Of a DNA stretch of 64,000 nucleotides, positions 38,633 through 39,969 are shown in pieces. How positions within the stretch are numbered: the first letter of the stretch is position 1; each line of letters starts with the position of its first letter. Made by a program: the position numbers and the translations under genes. Below the pieces are notes generated by a model. That model did no database searches. It saw nothing but the letters and a program-made list of their open reading frames with translations, and was not told the DNA's origin. This DNA is from an uncultured Acidobacteriota bacterium (lineage in GTDB: Bacteria; Acidobacteriota; Vicinamibacteria; Vicinamibacterales; SCN-69-37): NCBI GenBank assembly GCA_963780895.1, contig CAWAEG010000011.1, forward strand, positions 132,355 through 196,354, written 5' to 3'.

Positions 38633-38659
38633 CTGCAAGCTGTTGCTGGGCGCCGGTAG

Positions 38660-38904
38660 GTTGCCGATGGCTGGCGTGTCGTCAGGCGGGCCCTCCCGCC
38701 GCTCCGCAACGCGCTGCTGCCGCTCCGCGTTGCCCGCGGCCTCCGCGAGGCGGAAAAACGTCGCTCCAGGGGATTCGTCTTGGTGCACGCGCGTGGGGAC
38801 CCCCAGCCCCACGCGGTGTCGCTCCCTTGCGCGACGTTTTTCAGACTCTCGCTGTCGCCTCGCTCCGAGTCGGGCCGCCTGACGACACGCCAGCCAGCGG
38901 CAAC
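38660..38904 (+). mobile_element. MITE-like structured element, copy A
   Basis: ~30-bp terminal inverted repeats gttgccgatggctggcgtgtcgtcaggcgg / ccgcctgacgacacgccagccagcggcaac; internal IR gaaaaacgtcgc/gcgacgtttttc. Confidence 0.75.
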
Positions 38905-39024
38905 GGAGCTGGCTCTTCCTCTGAGAGTTCACCGTGGGCAGCGCGGTGGGACGCTCCCGCCCGGCCGCGCCGGTGCGCCCGCGTGTCCGTAATTAGCCGC
39001 ATCGAATGTCATCCTTCGCAGGCG

Positions 39025-39495
39025 TTATTCATGAATGCGCGGTCCGGGCTTCGGCTTGTAAGTCACACTGGTCAGATTCATCGCCATGAACGGCCCGGGG
39101 TCAGTGACAGCATCCAGGGTCGTGACTTGAAGGTTCCCCTCACCATCGCGCGTGTAGATCGTCATCCAATCCCAGCGCTGATCAGCAGCCCGAGTCGTGG
39201 TCGTCGTGATCACCAAGGCGCTGCTGACCCACTTCGTCTGCGAGACGTGCGTCCACTTCTCGCCCGTAACTGAGGTGGTCTCGTTCCGGCTTTCCGACCC
39301 GCCAAGCCGGTATATCCAGGGGCGCCCGCGTGCGTCCGTCACCGTGAGTTGCGTGGCGTCCTGGGTTATCACCAGCTGTTGCGGACCCGACGTGGCCAGC
39401 CACGTACCTGAAAACGAAGCTCGCGGTTGCGCCGAAACCACGTCAGCCGTCAACAGAAGCACCGCGAAAAGAACCCGTGACTTCACGGTTCTCAT
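39025..39495 (-). CDS. Hypothetical secreted beta-rich protein (cargo between elements A and B)
   Basis: GGAGG RBS, signal peptide, FSGTW, L.I.QD...L.V, Y.L.G.ES.N. Confidence 0.7.
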   Translation of the reverse strand: MRTVKSRVLFAVLLLTADVVSAQPRASFSGTWLATSGPQQLVITQDATQLTVTDARGRPWIYRLGGSESRNETTSVTGEKWTHVSQTKWVSSALVITTTTTRAADQRWDWMTIYTRDGEGNLQVTTLDAVTDPGPFMAMNLTSVTYKPKPGPRIHE

Positions 39496-39601
39496 GCTGT
39501 CCTCCAACGCTCCTCTAGACGGCAAATGGCTTCTGCAGGCCTCTGGTCATCCGGACTCCCTTGATCCCTTCCAAGAACTCACCCAATAAAGAGCCGGCTC
39601 C

Positions 39602-39843
39602 GTTGCCGCTGGCTGGCGTGTCGTCAGGCGGCCCGACTCGCAGCGAGGCGAGAGCGAGAGTCTGAAAAACGTCGCGGAAGGGAGCGACAACGCGTGGGGT
39701 TGGGGGTCCCCACGCGCGTGCACCAAGACGAACCCCCTGGAGCGACGTTTTTCCGCGTCGCGGAGGCCGCGGGCAACGGGAGCGGCAGTTGCGTTGCGGA
39801 GCGGCGGGAGGGCCCGCCTGACGATACGCCAGCCAGCGGCAAC
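39602..39843 (-). mobile_element. MITE-like structured element, copy B (inverted relative to A)
   Basis: The reverse complement aligns end to end with copy A, with about a dozen differences. Confidence 0.75.
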
Positions 39844-39969
39844 CTGGCGGCGTCCAGCGACGGTCTACTCGCGCCAGAGTCTGAGCTGACCTTCTCCCCG
39901 CGCTCCTTCACTCGAAGGCCAATCGGAAATCGTCTGGGCATGGAATCTTCTTGCTATATTGGCCTGAGC

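Follow-up and report, generated by a model that had tools for sequence, protein, structure and literature searches.

A single gene between inverted copies of a large hairpin repeat in a Vicinamibacterales genome

Upstream of thiC in the genome of an uncultured Vicinamibacterales bacterium, two inverted copies of a large imperfect palindrome enclose a single gene. Our best reading of this locus, which we put forward tentatively, is a non-autonomous, cargo-loaded head-to-head dimer of a large hairpin repeat of the REP/REPIN kind. Among the explanations raised in an earlier note on this DNA, a non-autonomous gene-capture unit fits best, since pairs of such arms recur, their cargo varies, the cassette is absent from a congener and no transposase accompanies it.

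The cassette and its arms

The window, that is the whole stretch of 64,000 nucleotides that was analysed, comprises positions 132355-196354 of contig C11 of the genome we label G000. In window coordinates, the features of the locus are the following:

38509..38633, plus strand: remnant (41 codons) of a gene's 3' end; the congener G001 has the longer, intact gene
38642..38920, plus strand: arm A, an imperfect palindrome of ~279 nt in canonical orientation, running from outer to inner end
38642-38659: outer tip of arm A
38660-38692, pairing with 38872-38904: outer stem of arm A
about 38697-38740: side hairpin of arm A
38729..38879, plus strand: core hairpin of arm A and the part that is found order-wide (155.7 bits with model R1; included in alignments A1 and A2)
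38752-38764, pairing with 38831-38842: A5/T5 stem of the core, GGAAAAACGTCGC/GCGACGTTTTTC
38793-38812: apex of arm A, GTGGGGACCCCCAGCCCCAC, a GTGGGG-N8-CCCCAC hairpin
38921..38993, strand not assigned: inner extension adjoining arm A, common to the left arm of the C3 cassette
39025..39495, minus strand: cargo gene of 156 aa with a signal-peptide-like, hydrophobic N-terminal leader
39586..39861, minus strand: arm B, a second copy of the palindrome, canonically oriented on this strand
39627-39777, with its apex at 39694-39713: core of arm B (147.3 bits with model R1)
39970..41637, plus strand: thiC, the right-hand neighbour, outside the cassette and 109 nt from it

The cassette starts 9 nt past the stop codon of the gene remnant. 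Its arms (38642-38920 and 39586-39861) are 92.5% identical in a global alignment of 279 columns, in agreement with the earlier description of two near-identical inverted copies. A repeat search resolved this similarity into an inverted block of 190 nt (38728-38917/39589-39778, 96%) and a second one of 71 nt (38642-38712/39791-39861, 92%), and it recovered in each arm the terminal repeats, the internal stem and the apical hairpin that had been reported. The terminal inverted repeats are 33-43 nt long (38660-38692/38872-38904, 94%; 39602-39644/39801-39843, 86%). Homology between the arms had also been said to continue beyond the ends of the elements, and it does, for 18 nt past the 245-nt palindrome at the outer end and for about 16 nt at the inner end. 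These 13-18 nt of extra homology are the outermost, mismatched portion of the same palindrome; since the tips that carry them partly pair with each other, we take the true unit to be a palindrome of ~276-279 nt. Folded as RNA, arm A reaches −180 kcal/mol (z −8.6, with none of 200 shuffles as good), and as DNA −106 kcal/mol (z −9.6). On both strands, the arm has a CGTCGC/GCGACG stem with T5 after it.

Within the window, model R1 of the core hairpin (see below) matches the two arms only (E≤1e-8). Sub-modules of the arms had been located at two further places. One of them, the 14-mer at 16465-16478, is indeed an exact third copy (3 matches vs 0.13 expected), but the sequence flanking it is not an element. 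The other, a related hairpin near 48628, did not hold up, as the motif is absent there and R1 has no match at this place at E≤1e-8.

According to Pfam, the neighbours between 35012 and 44970 are SHMT, RpiB, a methyltransferase, ThiC and a regulator, and this interval contains no transposase, recombinase or integrase. At the outer junctions of this cassette and of two further ones in the same genome (C3 and C8), as we placed them, no direct repeat or target-site duplication was seen. Both results agree with the earlier note, as does the content of the spacer, a single ORF of 156 aa with a leader, for which a secreted-protein gene had been proposed. The same order of arm, gene, arm and thiC is found, with 89% identity, on an independent metagenome contig of 1417 bp (L203). 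A fold-back misassembly, which the earlier note had named as a possible artefact, is therefore unlikely.

Three cassettes in one genome

BLAST and nhmmer searches of G000 (5.9 Mb) yielded three pairs of arms, thus six arms and no solo arm. Besides the cassette of the window (C11), they are:

C3, 316263-317507: arms 316263-316538 and 317231-317507, 88-91% identical to the C11 arms; the cargo is a small hydrophobic ORF
C8, 194681-196178: arms 194681-195062 and 195826-196178, 85% alike; the more distant pair

In each case the arms, which are 276-382 nt long, face inward and enclose 670-760 bp with a distinct ORF. The C8 arms hold a different core inside the same outer shell. The genome has nine occurrences of the shell motif GCCGNTGSCTGGCGTRTCGTC, all of them within the six arms. 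At 0-1 mismatch, the motif is confined to this genome, bar three scattered single matches with 1 mismatch among 70 other genomes of the family; at 2 mismatches, there are at most 4 matches per genome elsewhere, little more than with a reversed-pattern control. The DNA between the arms has a GC content of 0.57-0.62 (0.617 in the window cassette), compared to 0.69-0.72 in the arms and 0.66 in the genome. The left arms of C11 and C3 can be aligned over 353 nt at 86% identity, and so share ~75 nt more on the inner side. This inner extension (38921..38993) may be a remnant of an ancestral inter-arm spacer; it would be expected if both cassettes came from one dimer that had a spacer.

Searches of the whole genome by nhmmer and motif scans revealed no insertion sequence with the same tips or shell, and the arms did not prove to be the ends of a known IS, as the earlier note had considered. 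A 62-aa fragment in the C8 cargo, which we take to resemble a transposase C-terminus, has no Pfam or NCBIfam match and has weak relatives at C1:552730-553251. The note had also allowed that only two copies might exist, with a constant cargo; instead, there are six arms and three cargoes in this genome, and pairs with differing cargo recur at least eight more times in relatives.

Empty sites in related genomes

A comparison upstream of thiC, which had been suggested as a check, shows the cassette to be missing at the counterpart site of the congener G001, where the 3' end of the gene corresponding to the remnant is 129 bp from thiC, vs 1334 bp in G000. In fact, this congener lacks all three cassettes at the orthologous or syntenic sites; G002 likewise has no cassette at the C3 site, nor do G003 and G036 have one at the C8 site. 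In place of the C3 and C8 cassettes, G001 carries heptamer-repeat hairpins that lie between convergent genes. The spacers at the empty sites are too diverged to give base-exact junctions, and no target duplication was seen in them. The best reading of these comparisons is that the cassette unit arose or arrived in the lineage after its split from the sister species. L203 shows the cassette vertically inherited at the same site, so that any movement need not have been recent.

A core hairpin found throughout the order

The core of the arms, a hairpin of ~150 nt, has BLAST matches in 19 of 61 relatives, which represent six families of the order, and its apex is near-invariant (GTGGGG-RCCCCCAK-CCCCAC). 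A covariance model built from 20 copies (R1) matched 41 of the 71 family genomes, giving 151 matches in total and 0-28 per genome; the counts over these 71 genomes, for R1 as for the Y1/RAYT genes and the shell motif, include the unpublished genome G069, on which none of our conclusions rests. Scanning public genomes with the apex pattern, we found at least 117 stretches. Among 80 apex-pattern loci that we examined, most of which are labelled Vicinamibacterales or Acidobacteriota, R1 matches 75 at E≤0.01 (four weak, over the apex only). Most copies are single, a second one being present within 2.5 kb at 5 of the 80 loci.

In an alignment of 86 copies (A2), 93.0% of 2725 stem cells pair, whereas controls in which the pairing was slid reach 42-48%. 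Compensatory double changes are found in 26 of 32 pairs, which none of 500 shuffles attains; the earlier note had proposed to look for covariation. The non-Watson-Crick cells among the 2725 comprise 33 G:T or T:G, 54 A:C or C:A, and 137 other mismatches. The stems are selected for Watson-Crick pairing, without the wobble or strand signature of an RNA. Apex conservation in A2 is in part built in, as 68 of its 75 sources were located by the apex pattern; the apex is nearly invariant also in the set of 20 copies, which were picked by similarity search. Across the order, conservation peaks in the inner core and the apex, not at the tips.

We analyzed the gene context of 64 copies with a rough GC3-based caller; 5 of these lie inside ORFs and 16 lack a gene on at least one side. 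The 43 single copies with genes on both sides are located between convergent genes in 17 cases, between divergent genes in 5 and between tandem genes in 10 + 11. In 38 of the 43, at least one gene end faces the copy. The element thus behaves like REP-type repeats in that it is extragenic, lies preferentially near the 3' ends of genes and shows no preference as to their direction.

Rfam had no match at E≤1 in 36000-43000, no sigma-70-like promoter was found in the arms or the spacer, and a terminator scan yielded 3 hits compared with 1.8 ± 1.2 in shuffles, including one compact terminator-like hairpin in arm B. Given that G:T is not favoured over A:C and that orientation is independent of gene direction, we consider the element a hairpin at the level of DNA rather than a strand-specific RNA. 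A structured ncRNA family, which had been one of the proposals, is disfavoured by the empty Rfam search, by pairing that is Watson-Crick only and by the random orientation relative to flanking genes. The further proposal that the arms are built from smaller REP modules was only partly right, in that a lineage-specific outer shell surrounds the order-wide core of ~150 nt.

Pairs of the element across the family

Where R1 matches have a neighbour within 6 kb, they form 11 convergent, 2 divergent and 3 direct pairs, as well as 2 tandem arrays (counts read by eye from one R1 match table). The probability of at least 11 convergent cases in 18, at a chance of 0.25, is 0.0012, with the proviso that related genomes are not fully independent. 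Both tandem arrays, which have a period of 298 bp, are found in G067. Three of the 11 convergent pairs (G070:C73, G070:C170 and G002:C88) have almost no spacer and carry no cargo (gene context by the same rough caller), which shows that the dimer exists on its own. The remaining convergent pairs enclose 0.4-5.2 kb. The cargo of pairs outside G000 includes an HNH_2 nuclease, an Mrr nuclease (Mrr_N+Mrr_cat) with a small ORF, a NERD+SEC-C protein with a 263-aa ORF, and a 77-aa ORF; no transposase is carried by any pair examined, direct pairs included.

The arms of a pair tend to be close kin. In 6 of 10 convergent pairs in A2, the partner arm is the nearest of the 86 copies for both arms; in 2 more, this holds for one arm, or the partner ranks just behind an ortholog or another copy, and in the last 2 it does not hold. 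Members of two direct pairs are likewise nearest relatives, which argues that local origin is general. In the window cassette, the cores of arms A and B are 0.954 identical, compared to 0.921 and 0.907 for A or B against the other arm of L203.

One convergent pair (G001:C55) brackets a gene for a TonB-type receptor that is native to the genome and is found in the same collinear place, without arms, in G000. Since the gene is native and collinear, capture in a spacer does not explain this case. We also considered a duplicative inversion by replicative transposition at this site and rejected it, because the permease gene and the receptor gene keep the collinear order of G000.

Candidate enzymes and inversion

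Genes for Y1/RAYT proteins (PF01797) are present in 67 of the 71 family genomes, irrespective of whether the element is, and none in these genomes adjoins an R1 match. The three RAYT-like genes of G000 have palindromic flanking repeats of their own, which are unrelated and have dispersed copies, an arrangement reported from Acidobacteria by Di Nocera et al. (PMC3733652). With no such gene beside the element and other repeats flanking those in G000, we discarded a RAYT as the mover. We also discarded an Ssn-like GIY-YIG or DUF559 partner, for which we saw no link to the arms: the two small GIY-YIG genes of G000 (C3:115156 and C3:121474) are far from them, the former flanked by unrelated 24-nt repeats and the latter without a comparable repeat, and a DUF559 partner was not found. 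Beside the tandem arrays of G067 there is no integrase; Pfam gives a peptidase, a DEAD/Lhr helicase, or no family.

The earlier note had also suggested an invertible segment. None of the sequencing runs had more than 0.13 of the sampled window words, and the four runs that we compared represent contigs of relatives. Two joints between opposite strands (38497/39866 and 39602/39871), found on one contig each and with sides of 45 and 39 nt, are what palindromic arms by themselves would produce, and the contig of one relative joins 38491 to 38645. These joints show neither inversion nor excision. As there is no invertase nearby, as L203 is collinear and as the contigs are those of relatives only, the suggestion finds no support.

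Interpretation

We propose that the two facing arms act as one unit, with a single foreign-looking gene in the spacer between them. The hairpin would act as DNA, recognised by some enzyme as a single strand or a cruciform, and the dimer rather than the single arm would be propagated, as in REPINs. A dimer as the unit would account for the biased orientation, the close kinship between arms, the dimers without cargo, the absence of solo arms here and the inner extension that two left arms share. The centre of the long inverted repeat may be where genes enter. The centres of long palindromes are prone to breakage through SbcCD-type cleavage, and a long spacer stabilises an inverted repeat; for the latter reason, the survival of loaded dimers might be favoured. 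The stem of the arms, together with its T5, may in addition shield the cargo from transcription from outside.

Some observations sit uneasily with a REPIN-like dimer. No enzyme is linked to the element, its arms are 4-10 times the size of REPs, and its copy number is low (0-28 per genome). In Pseudomonas, moreover, REPs are described as avoiding recently acquired DNA (PMC3390384), the opposite of the pattern here.

Several other explanations can be weighed against this one. The cassette might be a non-autonomous composite transposon or mobile insertion cassette, moved as double-stranded DNA by a DDE-type transposase, encoded elsewhere or lost, that recognises the tips (GTCGCTGGGCGCCGGCG...) as its terminal inverted repeats. 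All six arms, despite two different cores, share their outer tips and shell, as would suit such a transposase, the arms always face inward as terminal inverted repeats would, the cassettes are missing in congeners, and the C8 cargo includes the fragment that presumably resembles a transposase. We nevertheless consider this origin unlikely, in view of the missing target duplication, the lack of an IS with these tips in the genome and the failure of the 62-aa fragment to match Pfam or NCBIfam. Also, conservation is highest in the core and apex rather than at the tips, and a binding site in double-stranded DNA would not need Watson-Crick covariation in its stem. The arms might instead act chiefly as RNA or in transcription, for instance as two-way terminators, mRNA stabilisers or insulators; pairs would then arise because the genes that they flank are better tolerated, and the cassette would not be mobile. 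The gene ends that face 38 of 43 single copies, the core stem followed by T5 on both strands, the compact hairpin called in arm B, the frequency of potentially toxic nucleases among the cargo and the bracketed native gene in G001 all point this way. However, wobble pairs are not favoured, Rfam gave no match at E≤1, the terminator scan did not exceed shuffles and G000 has no solo copies; as function alone would also leave the convergent bias and the arm kinship unexplained, we regard this account as improbable.

The arms could also have inserted separately or locally, in the manner of MITE- or REP-like elements, on either side of a gene, with inverted pairs in excess because direct ones delete themselves. 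This would agree with the prevalence of single copies elsewhere (a second one within 2.5 kb at 5 of 80 loci) and with the existence of direct pairs and arrays, whose members are also nearest relatives. It is difficult to reconcile, though, with the occurrence of all six arms in three adjacent convergent pairs in a genome of 5.9 Mb, and with a low-GC cargo that is missing from the congener along with the arms; the loss of direct pairs would, furthermore, leave 11 convergent vs 2 divergent pairs unexplained. Such stepwise insertion therefore seems to us quite improbable. Finally, recombination between the inverted arms of 276 nt might flip the gene and make the locus an invertible, phase-variable segment. 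Long inverted repeats of 92.5% identity are substrates for recombination, and the higher core identity of A and B (0.954) than to the other arms of L203 (0.921 and 0.907) hints at gene conversion. We find no recombinase in 35012-44970, no promoter-like site, a collinear arrangement in L203 and no evident outside partner for the orientation of the cargo, all of which makes this the explanation we would credit least, as very improbable.

Relationship to known systems

The cassette belongs among the known repeat-bounded cassettes and is not a separate type of system. REPs and REPINs are characterised as extragenic palindromes of 20-40 nt that lie mostly between convergent or co-directional genes and favour head-to-head dimers (PMC3733652, PMC3116915, PMC3337134). 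The first of these papers, by Di Nocera et al., describes DNA inserted between dimer partners and Y1 genes with long TIRs in Acidobacteria (PMC3733652). Our element resembles these repeats in being an extragenic palindrome with favoured inverted dimers and in the possibility of a gene between the inverted copies; in contrast to them, its arms measure 150-380 nt (core about 150), its copy number is low and it has no GTAG-type tag. From REPtrons, in which inverted REPs flank a RAYT gene, it differs in that the repeat flanks no RAYT and that the enclosed genes are unrelated cargo, not a transposase.

MIC231 of Bacillus cereus is a mobile insertion cassette. Such cassettes (PMC3913671) and TIME-COMPs, which are composite elements bounded by MITEs (PMC13367494), are described as transposase-free passengers between two inverted copies of a small non-coding element. 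Here too, a passenger without a transposase is bounded by inverted copies, and the arms have terminal inverted repeats. The ends of TIME-COMPs and mobile insertion cassettes, however, derive from IS or Tn3 elements, and both come with a known cognate transposase and with target duplications; we found no such features here. A further comparison is with NTS/dRS3 and Ssn-related motifs, DNA hairpins of 20-50 nt that cluster near particular genes, flank the gene of a cognate GIY-YIG nuclease and are recognised as ssDNA (PMC11893778). DNA hairpin repeats on both sides of a gene are common to both systems, but the GIY-YIG genes of G000 are not beside these arms.

The cassette also recalls two kinds of single-gene insertion. 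An integron cassette consists of one promoterless gene and one attC site, and occurs in direct arrays with an adjacent integrase. The likeness lies in a promoterless single gene bounded by imperfectly palindromic DNA in which the folding is conserved and not the sequence, and the difference in two inverted sites per gene, no gene arrays and no integrase. Prophage morons are accessory genes that occur singly, each flanked by transcription signals of its own. As in these, the insertion is a self-contained and perhaps insulated single gene of atypical composition, but it lacks a phage context and is flanked by copies of a dispersed repeat. One could go further and see in the apex hairpin the site of an ssDNA enzyme, and in the convergent pairs a cassette system that captures, insulates and shuttles single accessory genes, often anti-phage nucleases, among Vicinamibacterales, as a functional analogue of integron cassettes with two inverted sites per gene. 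We mention this as an unlikely extension.

Our search of the literature, supplements aside, found no account of the repeat or of cargo-bearing REPIN-like dimers in Acidobacteria. Vicinamibacterales are abundant in soil and hardly cultured, and to our knowledge their mobile DNA is almost undescribed. Here, a conserved hairpin marks sites at which single genes, restriction-type nucleases included, are gained or lost between close relatives with no visible transposase, in a pattern that recurs across the family, is biased in orientation and is polymorphic between congeners. Should the hairpin prove to be linked to an enzyme or a recombination route, this would explain how genes come and go in the order and might add a new hairpin-specific DNA enzyme; if it is linked to neither, the hairpin family would still be a useful marker of gene-swap sites. 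The family also represents an unusually large and deeply conserved REP-like repeat.

The protein encoded by the cargo gene

The 156-aa protein has no Pfam or NCBIfam match above threshold, and a search among 5.8 billion proteins returned 17 matches, namely itself and 16 relatives. Distant paralogues are present in 34 of 401 genomes of the order (a count that includes G339, on which none of our conclusions rests). Relatives of the cargo genes also occur without arms, namely a protein 69% identical to this one on L204 and a match on G002:C332. The small secreted ORF in the cassette of G089:C1 is unrelated to the protein of the window. The predicted structure is a ten-strand β-barrel (pLDDT 84) that weakly resembles fatty-acid- and retinoid-binding proteins, at a TM of about 0.5 and an E of about 2e-4, and we read the protein as a putative secreted binder of a small ligand.

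Flanks of the window cassette

Two stretches flank the cassette in the window:

38509-38633: 41-codon ORF, left flank
39862-39969: upstream region of thiC (start at 39970), right flank

G001, the congener lacking the cassettes at syntenic sites, carries a longer gene whose 3' end aligns with this ORF; in the window, next to the cassette, most of the gene is absent. In one metagenome contig, window position 38491 is fused directly to the arm at 38645. Upstream of thiC, the alignment of G001 with the window is confined to the vicinity of the start codon, and an Rfam search of window positions 36000-43000 found neither a TPP riboswitch nor any other family at E<=1.

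The arm 14-mer GGGCCCTCCCGCCG has an exact copy at window 16465-16478, inside an unrelated GC-rich spacer; within the window it is matched 3 times, compared to 0.13 expected.

The C3 and C8 cassettes and a second core family

The other two cassettes of the window genome (G000), on contigs C3 and C8, yielded the following features:

L185, G001:C37:64440-64713: empty C8-cassette site
L179, G001:C10:443354-443685: empty C3-cassette site
L207, L208 and L209, on G001:C47, C64 and C55: copies of the C8-type core
G000:C8:195535-195720 (L039 3536-3721), minus strand: 62-aa open fragment within the C8 cargo

Both empty sites lie between convergent genes and are occupied by long hairpins composed of heptamer-like words (aatctgg / gattcca). 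The core of the C8 arms is present in G001 as single palindromes of ~140 nt, 86-94% identical; it constitutes a second core family, which has the lower stem (..AGTCGGGC..) in common with the first. The 62-aa fragment, which we take to resemble the C-terminus of a DDE transposase, had no match in Pfam or NCBIfam, and its relatives in G000 were weak and limited to C1:552730-553251.

Arrays and nested copies in relatives

The core hairpin, the central part of the window arms, forms higher-order arrangements in two other genomes of the family:

G067, L044 1741-2890 and L045 about 1690-2740: tandem arrays, period 298 bp
G002:C88, L030 1868-3400: nested inverted structure

The array spacers consist of a repeated 9-nt unit (CAGGTTCGA / TCGAACCTG). 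In the nested structure, an HD_3/YfbR-like gene lies between a half copy and a full copy of the element, and an outer inverted repeat of ~85 nt encloses all three; this arrangement suggests palindrome-driven rearrangement.

Other hairpin repeats in G000

Hairpin repeats also accompany nuclease or Y1 genes of their own:

C9:223503-224291, C6:289943-290694 and C1:1279653-1280404: three Y1 (RAYT-like) genes
C3:115156-115362 (L211 1428-1757): small single-domain GIY-YIG ORF, open frame of 105 aa

Each Y1 gene has its own inverted palindromic repeat on both sides (50, 58 and 25 nt), with tens of dispersed copies in G000, many of which form doublets at a spacing of 105-135 bp; such REPIN-like populations have no relation to the cassette arms. 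The GIY-YIG ORF lies between perfect 24-nt inverted repeats, each containing an internal palindrome, an Ssn-like hairpin-nuclease layout.
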